32,000 bases of DNA, taken from positions 5,790,001 through 5,822,000 of the forward strand of contig CP001848.1 in NCBI GenBank assembly GCA_000025185.1, written 5' to 3'. The notes under the pieces were generated by a model, which was not told the origin of the DNA, made no database searches, and saw only the letters and a list, made by a program, of their open reading frames with translations. Source of the DNA: Pirellula staleyi DSM 6068. Lineage in GTDB: Bacteria > Planctomycetota > Planctomycetia > Pirellulales > Pirellulaceae. Position 1 is the first letter of the stretch, and each line of letters opens with the position of its first letter. The position numbers were made by a program, and so were the translations under genes. Shown here piece by piece: positions 6,143 through 29,100 of the stretch.

Positions 6143-6184
6143 AGAAGCTGTTGACCACCTTCACACTTTCTCGAGGAACAGCCC

Positions 6185-8798: not shown

Positions 8799-8986
8799 AT
8801 CTCTTCGGACCGATGCTCTGACGCAATTATGCACCAGTTGAACAATTGCGCGAGTCACGTTCGCGAAACTACTAGGGTGGTGCATCCACGTCCAAAATTT
8901 CGCCCCAGAGAGATAGATAACCACGCGGTATTGAAAGGAGACGAGCCAAATGGTTCCAACCTTCATTAACGGCAGAATCTATTTCA

Positions 8987-9883: not shown

Positions 9884-9934
9884 TAAAGTTCCACTGGCAG
9901 GTAGTATTTAGTTTACATATCAACTTGTGTTCAA

Positions 9935-11195: not shown

Positions 11196-11639
11196 ATCAC
11201 TAGGGCTCGATGCCCTCAAGCAATCGCCTTGGAGACTGCTCGCATCTCCGCTCTCGCCCTTTGCGACGGGTAGTTCGGTGGTCCCCCTTCGAGCAAACCC
11301 ATGGCCAAAAAAAAGCTACCGAAGAACATTTTGCAGTACCTGATCCAAGAGGTTTGGCAGATTCCATCTGTTATGCGAGATCATTCGCATGTCGACACGT
11401 GTAACTGGCTCGACCATCCCGCTAAAGACGGTCAGATTCGAACCACCTGTCGCCAATGTGGCTGTTTCCTCGGCTACCGCCCCCGCAAGAGTGCCGAGCG
11501 GGGCTGGCGAACGATCAGTGCAAGACCACCAAAACCAAGTATCATATTCTCATGACCAAAGGAGTTGAACCCAATTGCTATCTCGCCGTAGACTCGACAC
11601 GATGATGGAACTATGAGATGAGTGCATTATGTCCCTTGC

Positions 11640-11915
11640 ACCAGTCGAACCGCCGGTAAGACTCCGAAAACGCGAGCAAAGCTATCTCGGGATTCAGCGA
11701 GACAAAGCACTGTGTGTCATCAACATCGATGAACTCACAAGACCTGAAACCCCAAGACCTTGCCGCCCCAAGGCACATCGACCTGAAGCTCGACTCGGAC
11801 TCGTAAGCCAACTTGCTGGCGAGCACCTAGGACAAAGCTGCTTTCCTGGTGAAGGTCGACTTGAAGAGAGATGAAAGCTCAGAAACGAAGCGATTTCAAA
11901 CGCTGGCGCGAAGAA
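11640..11915 (-). pseudogene. Fragment of a class-3 lipase gene (paralogue of about 25640-25915), lacking start and catalytic Ser
   Basis: ORF 11611-11826 reads LASKLAYESESSFRSMCLGAARSWGFRSCEFIDVDDTQCFVSLNPEIALLAF. The intact lipase reads LASKLAYESEQSVKSTCLGSARSWGFSSCEFIDVDETQCFVALTPEIALVAF. Nucleotide similarity continues to about 11915, and no GHSLG region is present. Confidence 0.7.
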
Positions 11916-12285
11916 GTCGATTAACCTTGCAACATAGCCCCATACAAGCCATACGAAGCTGCCCGGCTTTCACAAGGTAAAACCACTGAGGGAATCGGCG
12001 ACCCGATGGAAATTGACACATGCAGTGGATTAGTCCATGCGTATGCCGGAAGAATTGTGTTGTTGGCCATTTTCCACGCCTCTTATATTTACTATGGACT
12101 GACACCTGGACGTTAATTCCTTAGCTGCTCAGGACTCGCCAGTGCGTCACCACAAACTTTCGCTGCCTAGGTTGTCTTCAGGCTGGCACAAGGTATCTTG
12201 AGCCTACGATGACGCCCCCCACACATGAGCAAATGGCCAACTTGCCCCTTGGCCGCTTCTTCAGCCATCTTCGGAATAACCAAAA

Positions 12286-12900
12286 ATGTGGTTCTACGAC
12301 GCAAACAAACTGGCAGGCGCAATTCTTAGGCTTTATTGCCCAGTCACTCTCTCGTATACGTCTGGAACAACTCTTCCGGACGGAGGCTTCATCCTGGCAT
12401 GCAATCATGAGTCATACCTTGACCCTTGGTTTCTAGGGACTGTGTTTCCTCGCCGAATCCGTTTCCTCATTACGCATGAATGGTATTTCCGAAGCCGATG
12501 GTGGACTAACTTCTTTAGCGCACTGGGCACGATTCCTGTCAACCCCGCAAAACCGCTCTCAGCAATAAAGAGGGCCCGAGACCACTTGAAAAATGGTGAT
12601 GTCGTCGGCATCTTTCCTGAAGGACAGATTTCATGGACGGGGGAGTTGCTGCCCTTCCAACCGGGATTGGATTTGCTGTCGAAAACTGCGGACAGTCCAG
12701 TTGTGCCTGTCGCCCTCGTAGGAGCGAGAAATGTTTTGCCTGCCAACTGCCGACTACCGAGACCAAGGAAAGTGAGTGTACTCATTGGCAACCCATTTCG
12801 TCGCACGGAGATTGCGCATAGCTACACCGAAACCTTCTTAAACGACTTCATTCGAAACGAGGTGTCGCGACTGCGCCTTTGTCTCTCGACGGTTTGCTGA
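12286..12900 (+). CDS. plsC: 1-acyl-sn-glycerol-3-phosphate acyltransferase family (PlsC-like)
   Basis: 204 aa. It has the H-x4-D acyltransferase motif CNHESYLDP, FPEGQIS, and a PVVPVAL block. Confidence 0.85.
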   Translation: MWFYDANKLAGAILRLYCPVTLSYTSGTTLPDGGFILACNHESYLDPWFLGTVFPRRIRFLITHEWYFRSRWWTNFFSALGTIPVNPAKPLSAIKRARDHLKNGDVVGIFPEGQISWTGELLPFQPGLDLLSKTADSPVVPVALVGARNVLPANCRLPRPRKVSVLIGNPFRRTEIAHSYTETFLNDFIRNEVSRLRLCLSTVC

Positions 12901-12954
12901 TTGGTTACTGAAGTAGAAACTTAACGAACCACGCTATCTGGAGCGAACAGTTCA

Positions 12955-14088
12955 ATGGCATCATCACTCAAGTCGGCGGTCGCTCGGTCGCTCGCAGATG
13001 CCGACATCATCATCGGCGGATCGCGCGCGTGGGACATCACTGTGCACGACACCCGTATGTACACAGCCTTGGCGACATCAGGCTCTCTGGGGGCAGGCGA
13101 GTCTTACATGAACGGATGGTGGGACTGTGATGCACTTGACCAGATGGCAGAGCGGTATCTCCGCAGCATCTCAACATCGAAAATTGCCGGTGGTCGCTTT
13201 TATGGCCTTCTTGAGCGCATCCGCGCGAAATACATCGACCTGCAAGTCGGCCTTGGTGGGCGAGAAATCGCCCGAGTTCACTACGACCTTCCGTCCGATC
13301 TGTTCGAGTCAATGCTCGGTCCAACCATGAATTATTCGTGCGGATATTGGCGCGAAGCCAATGATCTGACGACAGCTCAAAATGCGAAAATGCATTTAAT
13401 CTGCCGAAAGCTTGGACTTCGGCCTGGAATGCGCGTCCTTGACGTTGGTTGTGGTTGGGGCGGTCTGATTCAGTTTGTGGTACGTGAATACTCATGCAGC
13501 GTGGTAGGAATAACGGTGTCGGCCGAGCAAGCACGCTACGCGTCGAAGAAATGCAACGCCTCTTCAAGCGAAGTTTATTTACTCGACTACCGTGACCTTC
13601 GGCCTGAGACTCACGGCACCTTTGATGCTATCACATCCGTTGGGATGCTTGAGCATGTCGGTCCCCGAAACTACGCTCGCTATTTCGACATTATGCGCCG
13701 ACTCCTCAAGCCATCTGGATTGCTCCTTGTGCAATCGTTTGGGAGAGAACGGAGCGAACCGGTGGACCGATGGATAAACCGATACATATTCCCCAACAGC
13801 TATGTACCAAATGGCACAGAACTGCTCACAGCCACGCGAGGCCGATTCATCGTCGAGGATTGGCACAATTTCGGAGCGGATTATGACCGCACACTATTGG
13901 CGTGGCACACCAACTTCGAGAATTGGGCAATAGACAAATGGAAAGTGACAGCCCCAAAACGATACCGAATGTGGCGCTACTATTTGTTGACATTCGCAGC
14001 TGGTTTTCGAGTAAGGGACCGCGTGCAATTGTGGCAAATCGTGTTGTCTCCCGAAGGTGTCCCCAAAGGCTACGTCTCACTGCGATAG
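12955..14088 (+). CDS. cfa: Cyclopropane-fatty-acyl-phospholipid synthase family SAM-dependent methyltransferase
   Basis: 377 aa. The SAM motif is VLDVGCGWGGL, and YSCGYW, SVGMLEHVG and FPNSYVP are typical CMAS-family blocks. Confidence 0.9.
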   Translation: MASSLKSAVARSLADADIIIGGSRAWDITVHDTRMYTALATSGSLGAGESYMNGWWDCDALDQMAERYLRSISTSKIAGGRFYGLLERIRAKYIDLQVGLGGREIARVHYDLPSDLFESMLGPTMNYSCGYWREANDLTTAQNAKMHLICRKLGLRPGMRVLDVGCGWGGLIQFVVREYSCSVVGITVSAEQARYASKKCNASSSEVYLLDYRDLRPETHGTFDAITSVGMLEHVGPRNYARYFDIMRRLLKPSGLLLVQSFGRERSEPVDRWINRYIFPNSYVPNGTELLTATRGRFIVEDWHNFGADYDRTLLAWHTNFENWAIDKWKVTAPKRYRMWRYYLLTFAAGFRVRDRVQLWQIVLSPEGVPKGYVSLR

Positions 14089-14109
14089 TGGCGAACTTGA
14101 TTGTCAATA

Positions 14110-15330
14110 CTACACAACACCACGGTTCCGTTTTGCGACAGATACTATAGCACGTTCAGCACCCCGAAACACTGGGTTTGCATGCCACACAACGGTTCCA
14201 GCTTCAAAACTGATGTTATCAATATTGTCAAGCATCCAATCGCACGCGGTGATGGCAATAATTCTTGCAAGTGGTGCTCCAAGGCAATAATGCACACCCC
14301 ACCCAAAACCCAGATGGCCCGACACATCTCTTTTAACGTCCATTGTCCCAGGCGATGAAAATGCATTTTCGTCACGATTTCCACTACCGAACAATAGAAC
14401 GACATTGTTGCCCTGAGGAATGATTGTTCCAGACAACAGGGAATCACGTGTGGCTTGCCTTGCTGACATTTGAATAGGTGACTCTAATCTGGCAGTCTCC
14501 TCGATAGCATTCGGTAACAATGCTCTCTCGTCCTGCAGCAATGAGTACTGCGACTTGTTGCTACTAAAGAGTAACATTGCATTGAACAAAAGGTCTGTGG
14601 TTGTTTGAAGCCCAGCGCTAACCACCCCGACAACATTGGAGACAATCTCCGTCTCACTAAGTCCTCCGCCTGAAGCTCTGTGAAATATCCATTCACCAAG
14701 TATCGAATCTCGCGGAACTACACCATTGTGACGATGAATTAGCGGTGTCAAGTATTCGTCAACCTTCTGTGCCGCATCTACCGCGCAAATTAGACGCTGA
14801 TCGAGCGGAACGAATGAGAATCCGAGAAACTCATAAATATCACTCGTCCATTGGCGAAGCTTACTAAAGTCTGCGGGGGGGAGTCCGAGCACTTGTGCGA
14901 ACACGTTTGTTGACAGCTTGGTGCAAAAACATTCAACTGCGTTCCATGAATCATTTAGGTCGATGTGGTCGACAACCTTCTTAAGCTCGGATATCACTAC
15001 ACTCTGAGCCATTCGCATCCGGGCAGGCAGGAATGCAGCACCAAGAGCTGTCTTCAGTCTTCGTCTACGATCACCATCTGTAAATAAAAGTCGATGGCCA
15101 AGGAGTCGAAACAGACTAGCAGCGCTTTCGCGTACTGAGGAATCCAATTGGTTGTAGTAGTGAGTTAATCGGTTGGACGCGAAATCTTCAGACGCAAGTA
15201 CCGTGCGAATGTCGTCATATCGGGCAACAAGCCAATACCCCATCTCGTCGTTATAGGCGATACCTGGCGTCGCTCTCAGTTGCGAGTACAACGCATAACG
15301 ATCGATTGCAAGTGCGTGTAAAATGGACAT
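14110..15330 (-). CDS. Cytochrome P450
   Basis: 406 aa. The ExxR motif is EETARLE and the heme-binding loop is FGWGVHYCLGAPLAR. Its ATG at 15330 lies 2 nt after the stop of the upstream 1358-aa gene (TAA 15335-15333). Confidence 0.9.
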   Translation of the reverse strand: MSILHALAIDRYALYSQLRATPGIAYNDEMGYWLVARYDDIRTVLASEDFASNRLTHYYNQLDSSVRESAASLFRLLGHRLLFTDGDRRRRLKTALGAAFLPARMRMAQSVVISELKKVVDHIDLNDSWNAVECFCTKLSTNVFAQVLGLPPADFSKLRQWTSDIYEFLGFSFVPLDQRLICAVDAAQKVDEYLTPLIHRHNGVVPRDSILGEWIFHRASGGGLSETEIVSNVVGVVSAGLQTTTDLLFNAMLLFSSNKSQYSLLQDERALLPNAIEETARLESPIQMSARQATRDSLLSGTIIPQGNNVVLLFGSGNRDENAFSSPGTMDVKRDVSGHLGFGWGVHYCLGAPLARIIAITACDWMLDNIDNISFEAGTVVWHANPVFRGAERAIVSVAKRNRGVV

Positions 15331-15332: not shown

Positions 15333-18300
15333 TTAGTCGCCTTGGACGACTTTACTAGGAGTAGCGCGACAATGTGAAATGTCACGACATTGTGTGAGTA
15401 TATCGATTAGCTTTTTAACTCCATACGCCTTAATCCGAGAGAATACAGCTGAGCCCTCGGACAACAACTCAATAAGCTTCGGACGAACAAACTCTGCATC
15501 GCCTTTGCTATAAACTGCCACTGACAATGCATACAAATAGTGAGCGAATGTGATTTCACGATGAACCTCGTCGATCGCGCTGTTCTGAATTTCAATGAAT
15601 GCGCGCTGTAAGGTTCGGTTCATTGGTGAGATGTTCGTTCTTCCATGCTCCTTTTGACACATCAGAGCGACAACGAATGGATCTGGTGCCTTACCAATAG
15701 CTGGCCAGAGAGATGGATACGGAATATCACCCTCGGCATTGAGCTTCTTCAAGTAGCACCATGCCACACTTTTTACAATCGCTGATATTTCGGCTCCCGC
15801 TGGGATATTCTCCCCCTTGATCCAATCCTGAAAGCGAGTGATGACTAGATTGCGATAGAAGTTGTCGTCATTCCGTAGTGCGTTTCGCCCTACGCCAGTC
15901 GCAAGAACCAATTGGGTAATGCCAGTCAGTGGGGTAGCAGATGTGAACAATGCATCGAGTGCGGGACCGTCAAATCGAATGTTTGCGATGCTACACATTG
16001 CCAAGAAGTTTCCAAGCACATACGGAGCTGTCGAAGCGGCCTCCATGAACGTTGCGAGTGTTTCGAGACTGACGGTAAACTCCTTGAGTCGTTCCCCAGC
16101 CATGCGGAACATAAGCTCGGTGCACGCCCCAAACGACAACTCATCAGGCTGGCTCCCTCGTGTGCAGCTCGCCAAGTAGAGTGCGGCCAATTGTTGCACC
16201 CAGTTGTCATGTGGAATTCGGTAAGTACGGCCGCGATACTCTGGCTCGCCAGGAATAGGATCATCTCCAAGTCGGGCGAAGACAGTCCTGTTAAGCAATG
16301 ACCTAAGGATGGAATCGTCAGCAAACAGGGGGAGCAACCGGGAGAGACGTGCGCGCTGAGACCGCACCTCCGGCGATTCAACGCCAGTCGGCGTATGTGA
16401 CCAGGCCTGGACGCGGGCAATCGCTTGAGACTGAATGTTGCGAAAGGACTGGCTACCTGGGTTGCTGCGAAAGAACTCCCAAGCCACAACAGAGCCCATG
16501 TCCCTCCACTGTTCTTCTGAGATCGCGGGAAAGGATTCGTTCAACCTTGAATCCCGTATCAACCATGAAAATGCTTCGTCGTAGATCGCTGTGACGGACT
16601 GCATTTGTTCATCTGGTATCGATTCAATATGAGGTCCGAGAATGGGCAGTATCAACGGTGATCGCACAAGTGGCTGTAGGGCCGGAGGCACTCGCTGCAA
16701 CTCTGATCTCAGGCGAGGATAGACGGTAAAAGCCTCTTCTTCGTTCGGCGCGCGAACAGTAAACCGCATCTGAGCCGAAGCAAGAGACTCACATTCGGGC
16801 AAGGTGGATCGAACGAAACTCACTAGGCGTGTCGCATTATTCAGCCCTGCTCCAGCAGGGTGCAGAACAACGCTCTGTATTACCCGCCTGATATCCGCCA
16901 CTTCAATCACGTTATGGTGACGGTCCAAAAACTCATCGACGGACTCAAGAAGCAGCAAACACTGTCCGTTATGCATCCAACGATAAACCCATTCGATCGA
17001 AATAGTGATGGGTGGTAGTCCGAATCGTTCTTTACTCTGATTCACTAGCAAGGACGCCATCTCGCACCAGGATCGAATGAGAAGATCCCACGCATGATTT
17101 GCATTCGCCTTAGGGCCGGAAAAGAGCGTCGCAACGTCTGTTGACGATATGTTCAACTGAGGTAGCAGCAGAAACATTGGCAAATGTTCTGGTTCAGTTG
17201 ACAATTGGCAGTATCGCAGGCACACGTCGCGGGCAAAGAAGCGAGCTAATACTGACTTTCCAACGTTTGCCTCGCCCTTCACTACCGCAATTGCCGGGCC
17301 ATTGCTGGCTTGTCGGGCAAATGCATTAAGCGTACTGAGTACTGCTACCTGTGGTCCGTCTTTACCCTGATTGTCCACTCCAAAAGGCTGAACACATCGG
17401 AAAGAAACCAGGAAGTCGTCCGCGCGACAAAGGGTCTCCCATGCAACGGCCAATGCAACTCCATCAAGCCAGCCCGAGAGGTGCCGTCGCAGGTGACTCT
17501 TCACGATATCGAAGTATGACTTGTTGACCTGCCGTATCGACGTGTGAGTCCGGCGAAAAGTGGCCGTTTCGGCATCCGTCCTCACCCAGAGTGTCTTGCC
17601 GTCCACTTCGCTCCGGTCTGCATAGTCTGTGACATGCGGCGCAATGACATTATCTGCCGCCGCAAGGTACTCAATTGCCAACGGGCGCGGCAGTCGAACC
17701 GCATCAAGGTCATTGATCAAGGAGACATACCGTTCCTCCAGTTTCCGAACATAGTCCCCGTGGTACTCCAATTGCCGGACAATCCGGTTATAACCGAAGT
17801 TCATGCCAAGCACGTTCAGCGAACGTAAGAGCGGCCAAAGCACCCACTCATAGACTCCGCCCCAGAAACGTGTCTTCCATTGATCACCACCAAAGTGGGG
17901 CACATCAAAATTGATGATTTGCCGCACAGCGAGAACTGCCAATCTCATGTCGCGGACAGGGGTCAATTCATCGTCGCTACGCCGCCCGGAAAGTTGACGT
18001 CGAAGCGAGATCTGAGAGTGCAACGCCTCTTCGTCAACGTCATTGCAAAGCCACTCCTTGACGACAAGTCCACCTGCGCTATGCGCGAGGACCAGGAGGT
18101 GCTGGTACCGGTCGAGTTCGGGCTTTATCAGGCTATGCAGTTGCCTGCCAGCCGCCGACAAGTCTGCCTCTTCAGTTAGCCCCGCCGGATAATTGAACAG
18201 CAGCGCATCGCATTCCAGCTTTAGGTGTTGTTGCACGGACAGATGGAGTTCGTCCCACGTTAAGCAATTGCTCCGAAAGCCATGCACCATGATCATCAAC

Positions 18301-19409
18301 AGGTCGGCGCGGTACCGTGGGCTATCCTGATTAGGGTAGTACCACCAGCCGTCCACTCCTGCGGATCGGGTGCATCCTGGTGGTGCGCCTGGAGTAGCCG
18401 TCCGTTCCGGTCTCTCTGGCTTCTCGTCAACATTTCCTACTCGGCTTTCCTTTCGGCTACTTCGAGTCGCACGAGGTAACTTCGGGAGATTGAGAGTGCC
18501 ATTCGTTGTTGCCGAGATGTGACGGGATATTGCGGGGAAGAACACACCTTGATTAGCATCGACCTCAGCTCCGCAATGCAGTGCAAGAAGTCGACCGTCC
18601 CGTTGAATACAGGGAGATCCTGAGGACCCGCCTTCCGTATCGACTGCATAGAGAACCCGATTCTGGTCTTGCAGCACGTAGCGACTCGCGATGGGCCCAT
18701 CGGCAATCTCAACGGGACGGCCATCTGGGCATTGGATTATGCATGCATAGTCGCATACATCGAGGTTTATCGACAGTGAGTCGTCGACCGCGAACCACCC
18801 GCGAACATCTCCGATGGGAACGGATAAGCGTACCAGCGCGTAGTCTAGTTCGTTTACTACACTGAATGAAACAAGGGCTTCTACTGCTGCCGGCAGAACA
18901 ACCTCACCATCTTCCTCACGAACAGAATGCTCCTTGAAGTCGAAGCGAAAAGCTATGCGGTGGTCGTCACGAAGTGTGCCATCGTCGATCTGTGATCTTA
19001 GTACGTGATAGTTGGTGATGATTAAATCGGAACCGACGAGAAACCCACTGCCAATCGCAGATCCGTCAATTTCGACTCGACAGACCTGAGGAATTCCTTT
19101 TTGGTAGATGGAACCGGGAATGAATCGATTCCGTTTGGTGAGCCGATTTTGCAGAACGTTACGGTATGCGCCCTTTGCCTCCGCCCGCAATACTTCAAGC
19201 TTTCCCGCGTGTTTGGTCAGGAGTCGCGATACCACCCAGACTTCGCCAACCAGCCCTTGGGCCTGCGCTCGCTGAAGGATGTGTGTTCCATCACAGGGTG
19301 AAACGACCTCGCCAAAAACGTACTCAGATAGGTGTCGCAGTTGATGATCTTCAAGTGTCTCATCAATTGCTACAATCAACTTGGACACGAAATTGTGTGA
19401 GCTGGTCAC
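15333..19409 (-). CDS. STAND (NACHT-type) NTPase fused to an N-terminal helical domain, a trypsin-like serine protease and an alpha/beta-hydrolase (esterase/lipase-like) domain
   Basis: 1358 aa, with a GTG start overlapping the upstream stop (GTGA at 19406-19409). Residues 1-95 form a helical domain. Residues about 100-300 (nt about 18510-19112) are a trypsin-like fold with H in ITNYHVL, D in LDYALV and S in GGSSGSP. Residues about 365-640 (nt about 17490-18317) are an alpha/beta hydrolase with MVHGF and the nucleophile elbow AHSAG. Residues about 695-900 (nt about 16710-17327) are a P-loop NTPase with Walker A GEANVGKS and NACHT-like Walker B LLLLESVDE. The C-terminal region of about 450 aa is helical. 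Confidence 0.85.
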   Translation of the reverse strand: MTSSHNFVSKLIVAIDETLEDHQLRHLSEYVFGEVVSPCDGTHILQRAQAQGLVGEVWVVSRLLTKHAGKLEVLRAEAKGAYRNVLQNRLTKRNRFIPGSIYQKGIPQVCRVEIDGSAIGSGFLVGSDLIITNYHVLRSQIDDGTLRDDHRIAFRFDFKEHSVREEDGEVVLPAAVEALVSFSVVNELDYALVRLSVPIGDVRGWFAVDDSLSINLDVCDYACIIQCPDGRPVEIADGPIASRYVLQDQNRVLYAVDTEGGSSGSPCIQRDGRLLALHCGAEVDANQGVFFPAISRHISATTNGTLNLPKLPRATRSSRKESRVGNVDEKPERPERTATPGAPPGCTRSAGVDGWWYYPNQDSPRYRADLLMIMVHGFRSNCLTWDELHLSVQQHLKLECDALLFNYPAGLTEEADLSAAGRQLHSLIKPELDRYQHLLVLAHSAGGLVVKEWLCNDVDEEALHSQISLRRQLSGRRSDDELTPVRDMRLAVLAVRQIINFDVPHFGGDQWKTRFWGGVYEWVLWPLLRSLNVLGMNFGYNRIVRQLEYHGDYVRKLEERYVSLINDLDAVRLPRPLAIEYLAAADNVIAPHVTDYADRSEVDGKTLWVRTDAETATFRRTHTSIRQVNKSYFDIVKSHLRRHLSGWLDGVALAVAWETLCRADDFLVSFRCVQPFGVDNQGKDGPQVAVLSTLNAFARQASNGPAIAVVKGEANVGKSVLARFFARDVCLRYCQLSTEPEHLPMFLLLPQLNISSTDVATLFSGPKANANHAWDLLIRSWCEMASLLVNQSKERFGLPPITISIEWVYRWMHNGQCLLLLESVDEFLDRHHNVIEVADIRRVIQSVVLHPAGAGLNNATRLVSFVRSTLPECESLASAQMRFTVRAPNEEEAFTVYPRLRSELQRVPPALQPLVRSPLILPILGPHIESIPDEQMQSVTAIYDEAFSWLIRDSRLNESFPAISEEQWRDMGSVVAWEFFRSNPGSQSFRNIQSQAIARVQAWSHTPTGVESPEVRSQRARLSRLLPLFADDSILRSLLNRTVFARLGDDPIPGEPEYRGRTYRIPHDNWVQQLAALYLASCTRGSQPDELSFGACTELMFRMAGERLKEFTVSLETLATFMEAASTAPYVLGNFLAMCSIANIRFDGPALDALFTSATPLTGITQLVLATGVGRNALRNDDNFYRNLVITRFQDWIKGENIPAGAEISAIVKSVAWCYLKKLNAEGDIPYPSLWPAIGKAPDPFVVALMCQKEHGRTNISPMNRTLQRAFIEIQNSAIDEVHREITFAHYLYALSVAVYSKGDAEFVRPKLIELLSEGSAVFSRIKAYGVKKLIDILTQCRDISHCRATPSKVVQGD

Positions 19410-20464
19410 TGCAGACCTCGTTCAAAGGCGATGTGTGCGGCCAAGTCTGGATGATCAACTAGCGGATTCCTATTTCCTTGCGCGGCAAAGATCGCTTGAT
19501 TGCGGTGGCGTTCGTATTCACTGACTGGATGGTCCTGGTGCCATTGAAGGAGCGTCTCAAGTCGATCTGGAGTGTACTCAGAAGTCGACGAATTGATTTC
19601 ACCGGGGTAGCGGAGGAGAAAGTAGAGCGTTGCTCGGGCAACCGTTCCTTTTCCAGCGTTCGGTTCGAACTTGTTGGTCTCGCTCTTGCCGCAGTCAGAG
19701 CGGATGGCCTCGCCAAAGTTGGTGAAGTCGAAATAGGGGGTGTTGCTACGAAAACTGTTGCACTTGGATTCGCAAGCAAACAAATGATGCAAGTCTCCTC
19801 GCATCGGTTGTCGCTTGTTGAACCATGACTGCGGCACCACGTGTTCACAGTTGTAAGGAAGATCGGCTTCCAACGATTCCAAGAATGCTGCTTCCAAAAC
19901 TGGGTTTGCGGCTGCTTCCGATCTTCGGAAGCGATTCATACGCTCACGACGGAGTCGAGCAACTTCGAGGTCACGAGCAATGAACTCAGTCGGCTCAAAC
20001 ATCTGGGTCGAGTAGATGCTGCGAATTTTATGATTCGGCTGCAGGTCCACCCACGGGTACAGATGAATCGCTGGTTTGTATCCCAGTACCTTTATGTGCG
20101 TGTTACGCACGAGTTTGCTCAATGCATCAAATAGCTGCGAAGGGTTGAGAGTTGAAGAGATGCCGGAATAGTACGCTTTTCGTTCAGCGGCATCGGTGTT
20201 TTCGTCGTAATAGGGGCGACTGCGGGACTCTTCGAAGATCTTCCTCGCTGCTTCGAAGTCCGCATCTTCCGGTTCCTCGGATGAGCGACTGGCTGCAAGA
20301 GACGGCGTAGCTGGAGGAGGGCTGGATGTGACAACTGGCGTTGCGACGCTCGGCGCTCCCCCAGTAGGAGTTCCCAATGTGACTGACACGGTTAGCGGGA
20401 TCGTCCAGGTAGCCGTTCTTGAGGTTTGGCGAGCTGAATCTGAAGGAGGTTCGTTTGGAAACAT
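19406..20464 (-). CDS. Endonuclease I family nuclease with N-terminal junction motif and Pro/Ser/Thr-rich linker
   Basis: The Endonuclease I landmarks are NCEHVVPQSWF and GDLHHLF...NSFRSN. The track ORF starts at TTG 20485. I prefer ATG 20464 because AGGAG lies 7 nt upstream on the minus strand. No signal-peptide-like N-terminus is present. Confidence 0.85.
   Translation of the reverse strand: MFPNEPPSDSARQTSRTATWTIPLTVSVTLGTPTGGAPSVATPVVTSSPPPATPSLAASRSSEEPEDADFEAARKIFEESRSRPYYDENTDAAERKAYYSGISSTLNPSQLFDALSKLVRNTHIKVLGYKPAIHLYPWVDLQPNHKIRSIYSTQMFEPTEFIARDLEVARLRRERMNRFRRSEAAANPVLEAAFLESLEADLPYNCEHVVPQSWFNKRQPMRGDLHHLFACESKCNSFRSNTPYFDFTNFGEAIRSDCGKSETNKFEPNAGKGTVARATLYFLLRYPGEINSSTSEYTPDRLETLLQWHQDHPVSEYERHRNQAIFAAQGNRNPLVDHPDLAAHIAFERGLQ
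19446..20417. repeat. 972-bp perfect direct repeat, copy 1 (Endonuclease I module plus linker plus junction motif)
   Basis: A row-by-row comparison with 29851-30822 (offset 10405) found no mismatch. The ORF track also gives identical antisense ORF translations in both copies. Confidence 0.9.
20366..20416 (-). other. Junction motif instance TATWTIPLTVSVTLGTP (N-terminus of the stand-alone Endonuclease I)
   Basis: Read directly from the translation of ORF 19406-20485, residues 24-40. Confidence 0.8.
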
Positions 20465-20544: not shown

Positions 20545-23500
20545 TCACTTCATCGCCTCAAAGAATCGCTCTATATCTAGAATTCCATAACCAAAGCTGT
20601 TATTATGCCGTCCATTGTAATGCTTTGTAGTCTGCCAAAGTGCCTTCTTGACCTGAATCGCATTTGGCATTGATGTGCCATTCTTGCGATGAAATGAGAA
20701 GACGAGTGCAATGGCACCTGTCACGTGCGGGGCAGCCGTACTGGTTCCTGACATTGAAATACATTTAGAAAATGTCCCTGCTTTAGCGGCCTCAATTGAA
20801 GCACCAGGTGCAACTAGATCTGGCTTTGGATTAGCGGCATCATCTAGTCTTAGCGGCCCAAATGACGAAGAAGGCTCATTTTGTCCATTCTCGTCAATGC
20901 CGCCCACAGTGATTACGGAACGAGCAGTTCCAGGGATTGATAATGTGTATGATTGAGAGATGTTATTTAGAAATCTCGTCGGTCGCACGCCAGATCGCTC
21001 GAACCACGCATGTATCCATCCCTCAGATTTCACATCAATACCTCGCACTTTAAGTTTCCATTCTCCTCCAGCGATCCTTCCATATCGATTCGGACGCACG
21101 GTAATTTGAAGTCTGCTATCTCCATTGTCATGGTGACGGTAAGAAAGGTCAATTATTGACTTGGTTCCATCTTCGCAAGTTAGGACTTGTCGCGGTGAGT
21201 ATCTGGATACAATACGTGACTCCTGTCCGGTAGGACTAAAGAGAACAAACTCGCAGATATCAGAAGAATTAAACCAGAGTTCCAAATAGTCTTCTGGTCG
21301 GTGAATTTCTGGATCAGAAAGCCACTCCAGAAGATCGGTCCGACCGTTGGCGATCTGAATCAACGCGTGACCGCCAGCTGCACGTTCATTTCCTGCGGAC
21401 TTAACGATCGCAAGCCCTGGTGCTGTGCCACCGTTTGTGTAAGCATCGAATGCCGCCTCAAGTAGCGATGATCCATCATGAGCACCGGCATTCATTCCAA
21501 GGCTGACATTCACGACCAGCGGCAACCCAAACGAAGCAGCACGTGATTTGAGATACGCCAGGGCTTCCACATGACTTGCAGAGTATCCGAGGCTGTATGG
21601 ATCACTGGACATGACAGAAAGTTTTGGTATCACCAGAACGATTTTAGCGTCAGGTGCGACTCCACCTAGATAATCCCCTTCGGCCTTGCCAGCTGCAATG
21701 CTTGAAACATGAGTGCCATGACCGAGGTCGTCTCGCCCCAATTTTGCCGGAACCCTGCCTTCCCTCACGAAACTTCTAATCCGTTCCATCGAGAACACTG
21801 TTCCATAATTGAGAGAGGCCAAATTTGGAAACTCCTGAGCTGGGGTCCTCCCGTACTCGGCTCGCTGATCCCAAATTTCCAAGACGCGACTTTCGCCAGT
21901 TCCATCGCTGGTCAGGAATGCTTTATGTAAAATATCAATTCCAGTATCAATAATGCCACAAATACAATGACAACCAGTTTCGCCTGCCGGCGAGGAGTGA
22001 ACTGCCGGAGCTCCAACATACGATGACGAGCTCCATTCAAGTATCCCTGCAGGCCGACTGGCTTCAATGCTCAGTACATTCTGGTCCTGGTTCAGACTAC
22101 TTAGGGAGGCGGCTGTTCCAGAGCCTGTTATAATTGTTCCAATTACCGATCTCTCGATGAAACCGATCGGACAGGTCCAATCCTCAATTGAACGAACCTT
22201 TACCAACATTGGAAACACTGGATCATTCACTGTAGGCGATCCTCGCTCAGGTTCTGCACTCTTTAATGTAGTGGTGAGGCAGGACTCCTGTACCTGGATC
22301 ATATTTTCTTGTCTTCGCAAAGCCGCCTTTGATTCAAATGCCCCGATATGGTCCAAATATGTATCGTGCTTAACTGTCGTTAACTCCGGACTTACTACAG
22401 TTCGTGCTGGTTTACTCTTTGCCTCAGTCGGTTTCGGTAAGTTGCGATTGAGCGGGACTAGCTCGCTGGAACAAGTTTTCAAATCATTCTGGAGCGGACT
22501 CCCAATTGTGACTGACACGGTTAGCGGGATCGTCCAAGTAGCCGTTGATCCTGCGGATGCCTCTAACGGAGTTTCAGGAGCTACCGTGCTAGGGAAACTT
22601 ACCTGAACCGGGGGATTTCCAGGGACGGGCTCTGACTCATGCGGAATCGGCTGTGGGTTCAACACCACATCTCGCAGCGTTCCTTGCGTGGATGTCAGGC
22701 CTCCCAGTCCTGAAAGGTGCTCGCGAATCGCCACAACGCGACTCCCTTCGTTGGCGAATGCATCATGGCTCTTGCACCAGTCGAGAGTCGCCAATCCGAA
22801 GAGTAAGTCTTCGATTTCCTGAATTGAGACCTGATAGGGCTCCCAGTCTTCGGGCACTGCAAATTCCAGCGGAACCCCCGTAAGCTTTTGCTTGAGCACG
22901 AACCCAAACGCCTTCGGGCCGTCTTCGGTTTTTGCGATGACGATTTTCCAGAACTGTCGCGGAATTTGGATTTTTAGCGGGCCGCTGGAGTCTACGCCAT
23001 TGAATCGCTTATCGGAGGGATCGAGAACAGGACCTGCAAATACAATTACCCGCTCTGCAGTCGTTTCATCCTCGATTAGGTTTTCAAGATCGCCCCAGTT
23101 ATCGACCCCTTTAGATGCCTGATTAAACTTGGCTACCTGCGGAGAACAATTCGTTGTATGAAAAGTGTCACCGTTCCCCTTTTGCATGTCTAAGAAGGAG
23201 TCGCCCCATGCGACATCGTCGCGACGGACGAGATGCCCACGGTCGAAGGCCCCTTGGTCATTGATGAGGAACTTGTCGTGGAGTTGTTCCTCAAGCGGAA
23301 TACGATCGTCAGTGGCCCAGCTTTCAATGGTGTAGTCGTTATCAAATCCATTGAGTTCCTTCCGGGTCGGCTTGTGGCCATTCGACAGCATCTTGTCAGC
23401 TGATTGCCAGCTGACGTTTGCAGCAGAGAATAATGCCAGTCGACGCTGTTTATGCATGACGACAGAAAACTTGTGATACTTAAGCTCGTGGCTGCCATCG

Positions 23501-24945
23501 GCCAGAACCGAAGTGATGTCTCTTCCATCGGAGGTGAGTTCTGGCATTGGAACCAACTCGCCACCATCGAGTTCCAGAAAGTTGGGGTCGTATCCAGTGC
23601 GTTGTTCAAGGTTGGGATGAATCACTGGGACTTGAAACGTAGCTTCGCGCGCCGCATGGACGGGTGCTGTTGCAGGGGCAACAGTCGCGATGGATAACGG
23701 TTGTCCGATGGAGATCGACACTTGGATGGGAATCGTCCAGGTGCCCGTCTGGGAACTACCTGTGCCGCTCACGAACGGAGTGGATGGTATAGGTGCGGAT
23801 ACAGCACCACCACCCAGCGACTCAACGCCGCGCCACGCGCGGTCCCATTCATCGGTGGGCGGAACGCTGCCCACAAAGTTGATGCCTGAATCCACAACCC
23901 GAGGATCACGTGCCAGCTCAAATAGTGGCACTGAGTAATTTGCTTTGAGTGTTATGCCAGCAAAATGCAATCCTACAACCTCACCAGTTTCCACATCGAT
24001 GATCGCCGAACCCGAATTTCCGGCCAATGTCGAGCTATCGTGTGTCATAGCTGGAACGACATAATCGAAGCTCTCAACACGCTCTCGTACTTCGATCTCG
24101 CCAGGAGCCAGCCTCTTGACCCCAAACGTTGTCCCAAAAACCTTTCGTTCTAGTTGTACAGCACGTCGCGACCGGTCATTTCCGCGCCCTGGGTAGCCAA
24201 TTGCCACGATATTGCGTCCGACCAAATCTTCGGGAGCTCTCACCGATAGTTGGAGAGCTTTGTGCGCTGCCGAAAGCCCTTCGACGCGGAAGATCGCCAT
24301 ATCCCAGTAGGGATGCACCATGACCACATCCGTAAGGTGCAAGCTGGTGGACAGATCGCTCGGGTCTAGACCGCTCTCACGCCTGAAATCGATCGCAGAC
24401 TCAATTCCTGGAACGAATGAAAGTTGGTCGCGGAATCGCCCTACTCCACGCACGAAGGCCTCCGCGACGTGACGGTTCGTCATCATCAGATTCGGGCCAA
24501 CGATAAAGCCAGTGCCGATATGTTGTGGGATGCCGCCAGAAATGTCTTCAATACGACCAATCGACGGAATTAACGCATTGATCCTTGACCGAACAGGGGC
24601 TGCGTTGAATTGCGTCCACGGCTCCGGGAGCGTGTCAAACTGATCATCGATGACGAAAACTACTGGTCGGCCATCTTCCTCGACGATCGCCTCGAGATGC
24701 ATCCGCTCGCGAGGCGAGACGTCGTCAAAATCGCCGTTCTGGAGCTTACGTAATGCCACTGTTTCTAAATCGAAGCTCCGCAGAACAAGATCTTCGCGTC
24801 CACTAGAACCGCTGGCTAGGCTCTCTCGAGTCCCATCGCGAGTTGGCGCAGAGGCTCTCTCTTTGGCGAGAGATTCCAGATTGCCAGTGCCAGCAACCTT
24901 GGACAATTTTCTGCGAAGGGCTTGGAGAGAGGCATCTCGCGGCAT
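20545..24945 (-). CDS. Three-enzyme polyprotein: trypsin-like serine protease + DNA/RNA non-specific (NUC/Endonuclease_NS) nuclease + subtilisin-like S8 peptidase
   Basis: 1466 aa. Residues about 125-345 (nt about 23911-24573) are the trypsin-like domain: GTGFIVGPNLMMTNRHV, DMAIFRV, AGNSGSAI. Residues about 440-720 (nt about 22786-23628) are the NUC nuclease: FDRGHLVRRDD...NCSPQ...NWGDLE. Residues about 990-1466 (nt about 20548-21978) are the S8 peptidase: GIIDTGID (Asp), HGTHVSS (His), SAGNE (oxyanion Asn), SGTSTAAPHVTG (Ser). Two junction motifs separate the modules. Confidence 0.9.
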   Translation of the reverse strand: MPRDASLQALRRKLSKVAGTGNLESLAKERASAPTRDGTRESLASGSSGREDLVLRSFDLETVALRKLQNGDFDDVSPRERMHLEAIVEEDGRPVVFVIDDQFDTLPEPWTQFNAAPVRSRINALIPSIGRIEDISGGIPQHIGTGFIVGPNLMMTNRHVAEAFVRGVGRFRDQLSFVPGIESAIDFRRESGLDPSDLSTSLHLTDVVMVHPYWDMAIFRVEGLSAAHKALQLSVRAPEDLVGRNIVAIGYPGRGNDRSRRAVQLERKVFGTTFGVKRLAPGEIEVRERVESFDYVVPAMTHDSSTLAGNSGSAIIDVETGEVVGLHFAGITLKANYSVPLFELARDPRVVDSGINFVGSVPPTDEWDRAWRGVESLGGGAVSAPIPSTPFVSGTGSSQTGTWTIPIQVSISIGQPLSIATVAPATAPVHAAREATFQVPVIHPNLEQRTGYDPNFLELDGGELVPMPELTSDGRDITSVLADGSHELKYHKFSVVMHKQRRLALFSAANVSWQSADKMLSNGHKPTRKELNGFDNDYTIESWATDDRIPLEEQLHDKFLINDQGAFDRGHLVRRDDVAWGDSFLDMQKGNGDTFHTTNCSPQVAKFNQASKGVDNWGDLENLIEDETTAERVIVFAGPVLDPSDKRFNGVDSSGPLKIQIPRQFWKIVIAKTEDGPKAFGFVLKQKLTGVPLEFAVPEDWEPYQVSIQEIEDLLFGLATLDWCKSHDAFANEGSRVVAIREHLSGLGGLTSTQGTLRDVVLNPQPIPHESEPVPGNPPVQVSFPSTVAPETPLEASAGSTATWTIPLTVSVTIGSPLQNDLKTCSSELVPLNRNLPKPTEAKSKPARTVVSPELTTVKHDTYLDHIGAFESKAALRRQENMIQVQESCLTTTLKSAEPERGSPTVNDPVFPMLVKVRSIEDWTCPIGFIERSVIGTIITGSGTAASLSSLNQDQNVLSIEASRPAGILEWSSSSYVGAPAVHSSPAGETGCHCICGIIDTGIDILHKAFLTSDGTGESRVLEIWDQRAEYGRTPAQEFPNLASLNYGTVFSMERIRSFVREGRVPAKLGRDDLGHGTHVSSIAAGKAEGDYLGGVAPDAKIVLVIPKLSVMSSDPYSLGYSASHVEALAYLKSRAASFGLPLVVNVSLGMNAGAHDGSSLLEAAFDAYTNGGTAPGLAIVKSAGNERAAGGHALIQIANGRTDLLEWLSDPEIHRPEDYLELWFNSSDICEFVLFSPTGQESRIVSRYSPRQVLTCEDGTKSIIDLSYRHHDNGDSRLQITVRPNRYGRIAGGEWKLKVRGIDVKSEGWIHAWFERSGVRPTRFLNNISQSYTLSIPGTARSVITVGGIDENGQNEPSSSFGPLRLDDAANPKPDLVAPGASIEAAKAGTFSKCISMSGTSTAAPHVTGAIALVFSFHRKNGTSMPNAIQVKKALWQTTKHYNGRHNNSFGYGILDIERFFEAMK
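22495..22545 (-). other. Junction motif instance TATWTIPLTVSVTIGSP (between the NUC and S8 modules)
   Basis: Codon-by-codon reverse-complement check of 22495-22545; residues 801-817 of the 1466-aa ORF. Confidence 0.8.
22495..22755. repeat. 261-bp diverged repeat, copy A (protease C-terminal helix + linker + junction motif), located after the NUC domain
   Basis: It encodes ANEGSRVVAIREHLSGLGGLTSTQGTLRDVVLNPQPIPHESEPVPGNPPVQVSFPSTVAPETPLEASAGSTATWTIPLTVSVTIGSP. By hand alignment, 72 of 87 residues are identical to copy B. Confidence 0.85.
23698..23748 (-). other. Junction motif instance TGTWTIPIQVSISIGQP (between the trypsin-like and NUC modules)
   Basis: Residues 400-416 of the 1466-aa ORF. 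Confidence 0.8.
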
Positions 24946-24992: not shown

Positions 24993-26093
24993 TCAGAGAT
25001 TGGCTTTCGCGGCAATCTTGGCGATGTATTTGTCCAGACTATGATCGCTGACGCTCGGGATGAGTCCTTCGGTTTGCGGCATTGTGTGTGACTCAGTCAA
25101 GGGACGATTGACGCTGACAACTTCCTGACCAATCCGAGATTGCAGTCCCTGATACTCAGCTTCGGTGAGCATGGGCGGACCGGGTTTGAACGCCTCATCG
25201 TTTATCGATTCAGCGAATGCTCGCTCGGTGTTCGGCAAGGATTGGCCGTTCTGTAAACGACCTTGGGCATCAAAGTGTAGCAACCGACCGACATGCTCAT
25301 AGCCAGGAGGGACACGTGGCACGATGTCATCGTCGTTAACGAACCGGAAGAACTTTCCGGAGTAGTTTTGCGAGAAGAACATTCGGAAAGAGCCACGCCC
25401 GACAGCCGGTTGCCCAAATGTGACACCCCAGGAAGCAGGCATGAAGTGCTGCCACTCTGCTGCCATTACGGTTGCGAGTGCTCCACCCAGGCTGTGGCCA
25501 GTTAGGATGAGCGTTTGCCCGGCAATTCCCGAAAGCGCCGACCTCAACCGCGACTCCACAGCCTGAAACGCGCCAAGAAATCCCCTGTGCGTAACTCCGT
25601 ACTCGCGCGTTCGTCCCGCAACATTGATGTTTCGGAGCCAATCGCCACGACTCTCAGTTCCGCGAAACGCGACCAAAGCTATCTCGGGAGTCAGCGCGAC
25701 AAAGCATTGTGTTTCATCAACATCGATGAACTCACAAGAACTGAATCCCCAAGACCTTGCCGACCCAAGGCACGTCGACTTAACGCTCTGCTCGGACTCG
25801 TAAGCCAACTTGCTGGCGAGCGCCAACGATAAAGCCGCTTTCCAGGTGAAGGTCGACTTGGAAAGAGATGAAAGATCAAACGATGCTGTGTCAATCGCTG
25901 GCGGTGACGTCGAGATCTGGCCTTCTTGAAGGCCCAATGGAGTATTCACAGGAGCCGACACTCCCGTGCCGACCAGCATCGGCCGACCGATCTCAACGGT
26001 AACGCGCAAGTCGAGTGGAAACGTTGCTATCGATTCAGGCACGACGCAATGTTCTTTGTCTTGCCTAGTGCATTCTCGCAAGTTGTTCGACAT
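24993..26093 (-). CDS. Class-3 (fungal-type) lipase family protein with N-terminal junction motif
   Basis: The lipase_3 landmarks are the nucleophile elbow GHSLGGALA, NDDDIVPRVP (Asp) and SDHSLDKY (His). The track ORF starts at GTG 26174, which would overlap the upstream gene by 35 nt. ATG 26093 has GGAG 8 nt upstream and is my preferred start. Confidence 0.85.
   Translation of the reverse strand: MSNNLRECTRQDKEHCVVPESIATFPLDLRVTVEIGRPMLVGTGVSAPVNTPLGLQEGQISTSPPAIDTASFDLSSLSKSTFTWKAALSLALASKLAYESEQSVKSTCLGSARSWGFSSCEFIDVDETQCFVALTPEIALVAFRGTESRGDWLRNINVAGRTREYGVTHRGFLGAFQAVESRLRSALSGIAGQTLILTGHSLGGALATVMAAEWQHFMPASWGVTFGQPAVGRGSFRMFFSQNYSGKFFRFVNDDDIVPRVPPGYEHVGRLLHFDAQGRLQNGQSLPNTERAFAESINDEAFKPGPPMLTEAEYQGLQSRIGQEVVSVNRPLTESHTMPQTEGLIPSVSDHSLDKYIAKIAAKANL
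25980..26030 (-). other. Divergent junction motif instance IATFPLDLRVTVEIGRP (N-terminus of the lipase)
   Basis: Residues 49-65 of ORF 24993-26174. It aligns without gaps to the other copies, keeping A-T-aromatic, the alternating hydrophobic positions and the terminal G-x-P. Confidence 0.6.
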
Positions 26094-26139
26094 TCTCGTC
26101 GCTCCAAGTGTTACAGAAGACTCATCTACGGAAATTGCT

Positions 26140-29100
26140 CTACTCCGTGCTGGATCGGTTCCAAAAGTGCTCACAGAACCCCTGATTCTGTGTTTGGCTC
26201 AATAGGTCGAAGTACAGTTTCGTCGGGTCAAACCCAATCATTCCCTCGCGAACAATTCTGAGCAATACAAATGCAAGCTGGCAGAAATAGCTCACTTTGT
26301 GATCTTTGCTCCAACTCTTGCTGAATCGGCGGATCGACTCCCAAAGGCACCCCTCCGCTTCCTTCATCTCCCCACTTGCAATGTGCACCATAGATAGAGC
26401 ACAGAAATACTCAGCCGCGACCTCCAGCGAGTACGTTGCTAATAATGGGAAATGAACAAGCACTACTGACTTGGTACGCATGTCTTTTAGGCAATCAAGT
26501 CTCTCGTGTTGCCAAGCCAACCTGATTCGACGAGCTGCCGCCCGCACTCCGAGTGAGCCCTTTTTAAGCTGTCGTTCCAACTCTACCTGGAAGGACTTTG
26601 GTGACCATTGGCTATACTTCCACCAATCAGCGCGACATGCCAGCGTTCTCGGATCGTCAATTTCAACGGTTTTCTCCAGAATGTCGAGTGCGCGTCTAAG
26701 ATCAAAACGATTCTGACAGAAGATGTCGTCTAACTGGTGCTGTGAAACGGCGTCGGAAGAAGCACGAGCTTCCGCTACGTGCCGAAGAACCTCGGTAGCA
26801 GACTGGTGCAAGATTACAGCAGCTTCGGGCAAGAATGGTGCAAGGTCGGGGCTGTCCGCGATTTCCTGGATGGCCGTATCGCGGTTTTGACAACGCTTTA
26901 AACATTCAACAAGCTGAGGTTCCAGTTTGGGTAGATTCCTAAACGCTTCAACCTCAAAGAGGGCGGCGGGCAAACTCTGCAAGAGTTCCTCGGCAGATTT
27001 CTCGCCTTGATTCATCCGGAACATCAGATAATTATCAATGACATTTTTAGTGGCTCCAGACCAGTGAGCATTGTCGCCCGAAAACTTTGCCAATGTTTCG
27101 GTAGCGCTGGCATAGAGTCGTTCGGCTTCCTCCGGCTCGAGTGTTTCCAGCGCCTTCGCAAGTTTCGCGGCGGCTACAGCGTATTGCGGATGCAAGGTGT
27201 CGTAAACTTTCCGAGTCACTTCCAGTACCTCTCGTCGCAAGTCTAACGCCTCAGCACCTCGCTTCTGTTCCTCGATTGCGGATGCCAGAAGGCTCGTCAG
27301 CACACTTACTCGCTGGAGGTCGTCTGGAAAAAGCTTCAAAATGGTCTTTAGGCTTTCTCGTATTTGCTTCTCGGCTTCTGCAGGTCGTTTCAGATCAATG
27401 AGCTCTTGGCCGAGGCACATCAGAGTAACCGCAACTTCGTGGCTCTCACGGCCATGAGCTTGCTCCAAAGCGATCAGCGTTCGCTCCAAAATCGGCATCC
27501 AATTGCACTGCTTGGCGAGCCCACTTTCATCATCAACGCCCCAGTACTTCGCAAACTGGTAAATTTGCAATTGCTGTTCATGGGCTTGCGGCGAGTCAGC
27601 ACCAAACTTATCAGATTGAATGCTCCAGGCACGAAGGTATAGCTGCGCGGCGTCCCTGTTACGTGACGTGTCCCGAAGCAATTCGGCAAGACGCGACAAT
27701 GTCTCGGCTACTTCAGACGAGTTCGGTCCAAATTCCTGTTCACGGCGAGCTAACGCTTCTCGGAGAAGCGGTTCTGCTACCTTCATCTCACCAATAGCTG
27801 TGAGGTAGGTTCCATAAGAAGTGAGTAATCGTGAAAGTGGTCCAGGATTCGGAAACTTGGGAAGATGCGAAAGAACTGATTCGACATGTGGACGAAGTCT
27901 CCTGCATAGCGGCCACTCAGAAACGTATCTGGAATTCGCTGGAAACGATTTGGCAAGCATTCCAACTGCCAAGCGAAACGTTTCTGAAAGATGATCTGGC
28001 GAGTCGTGTTGGGCTCGCAAACGTGTGAATTCCTGAACCAAAGAATGAACGCTTATAGCTTTAGTCTCGTTTGCTTCAAAAGCAAACGAACATCTCTTGA
28101 GAGCCTTTAGCGCGACTCCGACATCGAGACCCGAAGATGCCAGGCAATCCAGGTTTTCAAGTTGAATGACGACCCGTCGATCAAGCTCAGTCGAGGCACA
28201 CCACGAAAGAACCTCCAAAAGTACCTTGGCACTATCAGCAAGTGTCTCCCAGCTTGTGTCCCAAGCAGTTGCAAGAGTTCGATGCCAGTCGTCACGAATG
28301 CCATGCATGCCCCAACCTCGAACCGACTGGTTGCGCTCACGGTAGAATCGCAGGCACTCGTCCAGAGGCTTGGCCTGACCGTCGATCCAATTTGCGACGA
28401 TTTTCAGTGCCAGCGGCAAGCCACCGAGGAGCCGACTGAATTCTGCCGCAGAGGCATCATCATCTTGCAACGACTTCGTTCGGCGCGGGGTGGCATCAAG
28501 TATAAATTGTGCTGTCTCCGACTCGCTCAAACCTCGCAATGCAATTGGCGTGGTAGGTGTGCTCCAGAAAGACTGGTCAAGACGAGAGGTAATCAGGAAA
28601 CGCCTATTTTCCCCGAATTTCCGAACGAACACACACACGGCGTCGCGAGATTGGATTGTGTCTGCACCGTCGATCACAAGCAACCAATTCGAGTTGTTTC
28701 GCAGCCATCTCTCTACAACTTCCTTCCTTCGCAATTCCGACGCCGAGGGATCGCAATCACATTCGCTAGAACTGATTTCGTTGCCGACAAAGGCCGCCAA
28801 TCCGGCTTGAATTGAGCTGTCAAGTGACACATTGACGTACAGAAGTTTGTCATAATCACACTTGTTGTCGCAACCAAATCGTCGAGCTACCGTGGATTTG
28901 CCGACACCTCCGATCCCGGTTAATACAACTGCCGCCGATTTCACAAAGTGATTGCTAATCTGCTCAAACACTTCTTTTTGAAGGACGAAGTGCTCCTCGC
29001 GAACCGTATCTAAAAACCAATCGCTCATCACAGTCGAGTCTTCCGACCTCAGAGCAACTGGTTCATAACCCAACTCCTCCAGGCGAAGCAAAATGCTCTT

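Follow-up and report, generated by a model that had tools for sequence, protein, structure and literature searches.

The described systems closest to the locus reported here are the NucA-peptidase conflict systems termed System 3, in which trypsin-like peptidases are coupled to NucA, sometimes with trypsin and S8 peptidases on either side of NucA in one polypeptide, and in which STAND NTPases begin with a trypsin domain; a proteolytic cascade has been proposed to activate them (Kaur, Burroughs, Iyer & Aravind 2020, PMC7159879). Protease-activated pro-nucleases have been established experimentally for a metallo-beta-lactamase (MBL) nuclease associated with trypsin-fused Avs or Hachiman (Tuck et al. 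2025, PMC12799240; Evans et al. 2025, PMC12642450), and effectors fused to trypsin-like proteases are found in CARD/NLR-like operons (Wein et al. 2023, PMC10312443). Here, we analyzed a 32,000-nt stretch of the Pirellula staleyi DSM 6068 genome (contig CP001848.1, positions 5,790,001 to 5,822,000; hereafter the window, in whose coordinates all positions are given), where six tightly packed genes, designated A to F, occupy the minus strand from 31.9 to 15.3 kb (table 1). Two of them, the trypsin-Endonuclease I (EndoI) fusion gene A and the shorter EndoI gene E, share a perfect 972-bp repeat, which was probably left by a recent gene conversion.

In domain content, this array matches the trypsin/NucA-STAND conflict systems of System 3: gene D combines trypsin and NucA in one protein with an S8 flank, as in the proteins P0281 and P0288, several trypsin paralogues stand in one operon, and B and F, the putative STAND NTPases, have an N-terminal trypsin match, weak in B. 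The array differs from System 3, however, in that its duplicated effector is Endonuclease I (PF04231) rather than NucA, in that its host is a planctomycete rather than an alphaproteobacterium, and in that no EAD1 or Death-like domain was detected with Pfam at E≤10 in the N-terminal regions tested, those of A and F; moreover, PMC7159879 makes no mention of the conserved linker motif or of the stand-alone effectors led by it that are described below. With the MBL pro-nuclease modules, the locus shares a nuclease gene lying directly upstream of a trypsin-STAND gene (E-F), and the zymogen activation by site-specific cleavage known from those modules would obey the same logic here, although the nuclease has the EndoI rather than the MBL fold and the protease of gene A is fused in cis to its effector. 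The array also resembles the operons of Wein et al., with a defense-island context in both; at the N-terminus, CARD-like in those, AlphaFold2 gives gene A a few helices of moderate confidence (residues 10-126; mean predicted local distance difference test score, pLDDT, of 51-91 per 10-residue block, mostly 51-88). The array is a known kind of system and gene conversion itself is textbook biology; what the window offers is an ordinary process, intragenomic gene conversion, documented unusually cleanly in such a system.

An Identical Tract Shared by Two Endonuclease I Genes

The two copies of the repeat, which a first-pass annotation of the window had matched base for base in a row-by-row comparison, are identical at 972 of 972 nt in an exact comparison. 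The match extends by 0 bases on either side and, as the exact alignment shows, identity collapses within one base at both ends, with no scattered mismatches. Both copies are on the minus strand, 10.4 kb apart (offset 10405), and form by far the strongest internal similarity of the window when it is compared with itself by BLASTN. The same annotation had cited four pairs of antisense open reading frames (ORFs) at this offset; the offset holds, and the ORF list contains three such incidental pairs. A chance origin of an identity of this length is out of the question, and zero differences over 972 sites set the calculated 95% upper bound on divergence at about 0.3%.

On the gene 3' side, the repeat ends 36 nt ahead of the stop codon, and the adjoining 40 nt, stop codon included, match at 23 positions, encoding DLAAHIAFERGLQ in gene E and DWAQHLDFEKGLG in gene A. 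The last 12 codons are homologous but diverged, as had been noticed, and the identical tract is embedded on this side in a longer stretch of diverged homology. The tails run into 4-nt stop/start overlaps with the following genes, also read correctly at first pass: GTGA for E/F, where F begins at GTG, and ATGA for A/B. Past the tails, the flanks are unrelated (3-12 matches per 30-nt block).

On the gene 5' side, identity reaches as far as the first base of the Thr codon with which TATWTIPL begins, the start of a 17-residue motif, TATWTIPLTVSVTLGTP, and homology between A and E ends there with it. The repeat thus starts at the first codon of the motif, at its 5' edge, and not inside it as first annotated. 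Gene E starts at ATG 20464 (MFPNEPPSDSARQTSR), with AGGAG 7 nt upstream, so that the short copy does have an N-terminus and a ribosome-binding site of its own, while the other copy continues into the trypsin fusion. Both genes score above the Pfam cut-off of 25 bits for Endonuclease I (PF04231; 123 bits for E, 121 for A), and the EndoI blocks NCEH..PQSW and HHLF..CNS.R are invariant in 50 relatives.

Purifying selection was rejected as the cause of the identity, as the identity extends to the fast-evolving linker and to every synonymous site. Among the closer, planctomycete orthologues of A, the linker between protease and nuclease is 52-80% conserved, and less so in distant ones; since this variable linker is nonetheless 100% identical between A and E, the identity reflects recency rather than constraint.

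Probable Gene Conversion and Its Direction

We regard the repeat as probably the tract of a recent A-to-E gene conversion, or of an equivalent double crossover, that covered nearly the whole homologous segment: the motif-linker-EndoI module of A would have overwritten a resident EndoI effector gene E upstream of F.

The evidence for a resident gene comes from relatives of gene F, for which 5.8 billion protein clusters contain just two true homologues. The closer one, 73% identical, lies in a syntenic metagenome locus (L006, with which the separate assembly L007 agrees), where the F orthologue is followed, as in the window, by P450, CMAS, and acyltransferase genes. Overlapping the start of that F orthologue by ATGA is an 83-aa gene, a decayed EndoI C-terminus ending in ...REINATDNENTFDRVNALLHGHKDHSVNVYECRLYLAMFAVQQKRNQLVDQPVLAPCIAFERGLR. 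The remnant closes with ...CIAFERGLR, where gene E closes with ...IAFERGLQ*, and at the nucleotide level its tail and the F start align with the tail of E and F, not with the tail of A. An EndoI-type gene with such a tail therefore stood upstream of F before the lineages split, so that the 12 diverged codons of E are old resident sequence and the identical core a later overwrite. Of the suggestion made at first pass, a recent homogenization between older paralogues or else the replacement of a cassette delimited by the motif, this outgroup tail supports the part on older paralogues.

The same loci bear on the possibility that a single genomic copy was placed twice by the assembler, exact repeats of about 1 kb being a classic problem of short-read assembly. 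On indirect arguments, we consider this very unlikely: both copies are in frame and in different genes, the repeat is bounded by a codon and module edge on one side and by a homologous but diverged tail on the other, and their flanks are independently supported by orthologues, tail-F in L006 and L007 and A-B in the metagenome locus L001, where the gene after a 78% orthologue of A is orthologous to B. Besides, the source contig is 6.2 Mb long, and a mis-assembly across a repeat presupposes that a repeat exists.

As for direction, the identity by itself has none, and the core of E could in principle be the original that overwrote the EndoI module of A. A foreign core in A, however, should show as a drop in identity to the orthologues of A, whose best relatives are planctomycete proteins (81% in a Pirellula metagenome-assembled genome, 80% in Allorhodopirellula). 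Instead, trypsin and EndoI identities run parallel over 13 orthologues (for example, 90/90, 84/86, 90/86, and 88/81%, trypsin/EndoI), the EndoI core being as conserved as the trypsin domain and giving the same ranking of orthologues. Because the core tracks the trypsin domain of A, it is likely native to A, which makes A the likely donor; a transfer from E to A is very improbable. A scan of genome contigs with A found no conspecific, its best match being the 81% Pirellula genome, on a 4-kb contig. Proteins A, B, and D of the window, full-length A (P0001), and protein P0009 of a relative, looked up by exact sequence, matched no record, so that no independent assembly of this genome came to hand.

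Gene conversion from A to E would also account for where the tract ends, as it spans essentially the entire region over which A and E could pair. Ahead of the motif, all that E has is a leader and a spacer without relation to A; on the other side, the homology does not continue past the stop codon. In the 36 nt that escaped conversion lie the stop/start overlap and what is presumably the ribosome-binding region of F, which could plausibly explain the halt of conversion at this point or the loss of longer tracts.

Paralogues within a bacterial genome are known to undergo gene conversion, as between tufA and tufB or from pilS to pilE in Neisseria. The A-E tract resembles these cases in its presumed non-reciprocal transfer and in a perfect identity that gives way to diverged flanks inside a region of homology; it differs from them in that a single recent tract and one older patch (86% identity, see below) are present, with no sign of a programmed or recurrent mechanism. 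If read correctly, the locus is a clean and datable example of the remodeling of NLR-like, protease-gated immune loci in bacteria, in which whole effector modules are copied between neighboring sensor units by homologous recombination.

A Conserved Linker Motif at the Module Boundary

The motif at which the repeat begins (consensus G.ATWTIPL.VSV.LG) sits within the otherwise variable linker between protease and effector. The trypsin-EndoI fusion family, with 1162 matches at E≤1e-5 among 8000 candidates scored, extends over planctomycetes, cyanobacteria, Acidobacteria, and Methylobacterium, and the motif, conserved from planctomycetes to cyanobacteria, is present in all 26 trypsin-EndoI sequences inspected, degenerate in two (P0015, P0016), as well as in a 50-sequence alignment of family members, where W411 and P414 never vary and L415 and G422 hardly do. 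It is followed by a conserved acidic stretch, EEPEDADFE. In the AlphaFold2 model of gene A, it is predicted, at low confidence, as a beta-hairpin (407-412, 416-421) inside a disordered stretch (375-453). Pfam has no model of the motif and, at E≤10, gave nothing meaningful over the linker and motif region, and the motif is therefore by sequence not an EAD1, EACC1, or Trypco domain. As far as our literature search showed, it has not been described.

In the array and its relatives, the motif precedes four types of module: EndoI (A, E), NucA (D and its L006 orthologue), S8 (the second copy in D), and Lipase_3 (C; fused to the protease in locus L008). Stand-alone, motif-led EndoI proteins also occur in unrelated metagenomes (P0267, P0130, P0157), which makes the architecture of E one that recurs in nature and not that of a broken gene. 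A short linker motif that marks a module boundary across four effector types is a more original lead than the conversion itself.

In polymorphic toxin loci (Rhs and contact-dependent inhibition, CDI), too, a conserved motif marks an exchangeable C-terminal module, and orphan cassettes are found. Common to those loci and this one are a short motif where homology blocks switch and N-terminally truncated, promoter-distal copies, here E and C. Unlike orphan cassettes, however, E and C each come with a start codon and a ribosome-binding site, and what they are translationally coupled to, or precede, is a sensor gene rather than an immunity gene; the copy in E is identical to the module of the full-length gene, and the proteins are intracellular, not secreted. 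The classification of E as a polymorphic-toxin orphan cassette was consequently dropped, as this gene begins at an ATG behind AGGAG and overlaps the gene for a 1358-aa protease-NTPase.

The locus may be a protease-gated, NLR-like abortive-infection array. The STAND proteins B and F would sense an invader, upon which their N-terminal trypsin domains would become active and cleave the disordered linker around the motif, thereby releasing or unmasking the EndoI, NucA, and lipase effectors; E, as it lacks a protease of its own, is proposed to be processed in trans by F. In this scheme, the motif would be part of the pro-region of the effector, a putative element by which the trypsin domain, acting in cis or in trans, recognizes the effector or docks onto it, and hence a candidate determinant of protease recognition or cleavage. 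Were this so, activation of the abundant and uncharacterized trypsin-EndoI family would become directly testable.

Several points weigh against the account given so far. The pLDDT of the motif in the AlphaFold2 model is below 50 and its hairpin is undocked on either domain, and the cleavage and defense role of the trypsin-EndoI family is inferred from sequence. As for the conversion, the overwriting of a diverged paralogue is read from 12 codons and a decayed 83-aa remnant, and no intact E-type orthologue was found in two metagenome scans for E-type tails: the pattern NPL.D...IAFERGL gave no matches, and IAFERGL.* with an RTGA overlap gave 28, of which the L006 contig alone is real and the others chance. 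The L006 remnant is, in addition, 73% identical to the shared core over 127 nt, a value similar to that of the orthologous flanks (76%). The use of this remnant as proof that the old core of E had differed from that of A was abandoned, a comparison of this length and identity carrying too little signal.

Older Patch and Rearrangement History

Gene D carries an older, A-type patch, which comprises the end of a trypsin domain (ANEG.RVVAIREHL), a linker, and a second motif copy. Its homology to A ends just after the motif, the last base of the motif being 22496, the limit returned by the alignment tool. Trypsin-NucA-S8 homologues (P0281, P0288) have no such block or motif between NucA and S8, which identifies the patch in D as a graft. 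A contiguous 1183 nt of A are thus present in D and E as two blocks of different age, each with a motif copy, separated by 2078 nt that hold S8, a stop codon, a spacer, and the leader of E; the motif is in this way duplicated on either side of a 2-kb insert. Both blocks abut the motif, one starting at its first base and the other ending a few bases past its last.

The D orthologue of L006 stops right after NucA (...LDWCKANDALVS*), and a pseudogene relic in the window, an N-terminal Lipase_3 fragment joined to ...FDWCKGHNALIS, has an ending that resembles this NucA gene end (LDWCKANDALVS). The relic looks like a degenerate partial copy of C-D with an internal deletion of about 2.9 kb, and its ending suggests that D once ended after NucA in this lineage too. 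A possible trace of the A-type block in L006 is weak (14 of 17 nt). The locus has clearly been rearranged repeatedly, with the motif edge recurring as a breakpoint.

This history gives some room to a cassette insertion, in which the motif-EndoI module of A was copied into a slot upstream of F that held no intact EndoI gene, for example a remnant such as that of L006, the short homology arms being the 51-nt motif and a conserved patch that encodes NPLVDHPD. What occupies the position upstream of F-type genes does vary (EndoI here, an EndoI remnant in L006, Trypsin-motif-Lipase_3 in L008), the split of the contiguous 1183 nt of A into two blocks has the geometry expected from insertion at the motif, and the patch and relics testify to frequent rearrangement. 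Mechanistically, however, such an insertion would be almost the same event as a conversion, for it, too, requires homology to be resident at either end; the site did hold EndoI sequence, as the retained homologous tail shows, and the leader and ribosome-binding site of E would have to pre-exist or arise separately. We consider it unlikely, though worth keeping in view.

That the motif edge recurs as a breakpoint is most simply explained by selection for in-frame, module-preserving recombinants, and it is possible that the 51-nt motif sequence acts mechanistically as a homology arm. A bolder idea, which we put forward as a speculation with rather long odds, is that the 51-nt hairpin-coding sequence (TWTIPLxVSVxLG) also serves as a DNA joint for the exchange of effector modules between protease-gated NLR-like units of one genome, and that the 972-bp repeats could mediate a 10.4-kb deletion. 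If true, such a deletion would re-pair the protease-EndoI gene of A with sensor F and provide a sensor-effector switch at the population level.

Gene Array and Genomic Setting

The first-pass annotation had seen in the array two nuclease-plus-sensor units, each EndoI copy with a different STAND NTPase. The pairings are borne out by A-B in L001 and by the tail-F junction in L006, but both are part of one multi-effector array, and the NTPase of F is weakly supported, with a NACHT match (E=0.005) under the Pfam cut-off. The pairing of A and B is old as well, given its presence in L001. In that locus (12228-15293), the B orthologue is only 633 aa long and is followed by insertion sequence fragments (DUF4096, DDE_Tnp_1), the sensor gene having probably been truncated by a transposon.

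AlphaFold2 models the two enzymatic domains of gene A confidently. A fold search with the whole model returned trypsin-fold matches only, its protease domain being closest to Glu-specific proteases of the V8/Esp/Spl type. Gene B has a Trypsin_2 match (E=6e-6, 27.4 bits) just under the 27.6-bit cut-off, an NB-ARC domain (E=3e-11), and TPR. The real start of gene C is probably the ATG at 26093. Gene D matches Trypsin_2 (E=2.1e-15), Endonuclease_NS (E=3e-34), and Peptidase_S8 (E=1.9e-32) in Pfam. The family to which its S8 part (20548-22773) belongs occurs alone (about 600 aa) or fused C-terminally (proteins P0276-P0395), with NucA, Lipase_3, EEP nuclease, TIR, adenylate cyclase, and kinase as N-terminal partners, and thus behaves as a constant protease module rather than as an effector.

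Gene F combines a Trypsin_2 domain (E=6e-19) with a Walker A (GEANVGKS) and a Walker B (LLLLESVDE) motif, and its type may constitute a rare, undescribed clade of STAND-like sensors. Proteins of this type have about 540 uncharacterized C-terminal residues, and a sequence search with the C-terminal 719 residues of F gave no match in the PDB. Near F-type genes, L008 (360-611) and L006 (2033-2284) each have an 83-aa ORF, mutually unrelated: that of L008 encodes a small protein between an S8 gene and a Trypsin-Lipase gene, and that of L006 is the EndoI remnant.

Table 1. Features of the 32,000-nt window, in window coordinates.
Feature	Position	Strand	Remarks
Gene A: N-terminal helical region, Trypsin_2, long linker with motif, Endonuclease I	29811-32000	-	P0001, 743 aa in full; start beyond window end
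Gene B: weak trypsin domain, NB-ARC, TPR; putative STAND partner of A	26140-29814	-	
Gene C: short leader, degenerate motif, Lipase_3 effector	24993-26174	-	
Gene D: Trypsin_2, motif, Endonuclease_NS (NucA), A-type patch with motif, Peptidase_S8	20545-24945	-	
Gene E: 16-residue leader, motif, linker, Endonuclease I; no protease domain	19406-20464	-	
Gene F: Trypsin_2, alpha/beta-hydrolase (DUF676-like), P-loop NTPase, C-terminal region; putative sensor/protease partner of E	15333-19409	-	
Repeat copy 1: motif, disordered linker, EndoI domain of gene E	19446-20417	-	972/972; Pfam Endonuclease_1 E=1.8e-35
Repeat copy 2: same module within the trypsin-EndoI fusion of gene A, presumed donor	29851-30822	-	972/972
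Presumed resident, unconverted tail of E (LAAHIAFERGLQ*), coupling junction with F	19406-19445	-	Aligns with L006 remnant tail
Tail of A (WAQHLDFEKGLG*), junction with B	29811-29850	-	Inside tail range of A's orthologues
Motif coding sequence in E	20367-20417	-	
Motif coding sequence in A	30772-30822	-	
First motif copy in D (TGTWTIPIQVSISIGQP), between trypsin and NucA	23699-23749	-	
Degenerate motif (IATFPLDLRVTVEIGRP), N-terminus of stand-alone lipase gene C	25980-26030	-	
Older A-type patch in D: trypsin-domain end, linker, second motif copy	22496-22757	-	86% to 30772-31033
Pseudogene relic: Lipase_3 N-terminal fragment joined to ...FDWCKGHNALIS*	11620-11908	-	88% nt to gene C 25665-25903; internal stop
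Type I restriction R subunit	98-2896	-	
PD-(D/E)XK nuclease	4503-4997		
WYL/WCX transcription regulator	6856-7962		
D12-class (Dam-type) adenine methyltransferase	8987-9883		

The part of the window upstream of the array (98-10468) is a defense-island setting, with a restriction subunit, a nuclease, a transcription regulator, and a methyltransferase (table 1). PADLOC, run on the window, gave generic protease, NACHT-associated, and subtilase matches only. In the same region, a PAD_porph (agmatine deiminase-like) gene (7959-8798) has a partial duplicate of its 3' half, with 77% identity between 8291-8827 and 10725-11224; the copy at 10725-11224, fragmented across frames, is probably a pseudogene.

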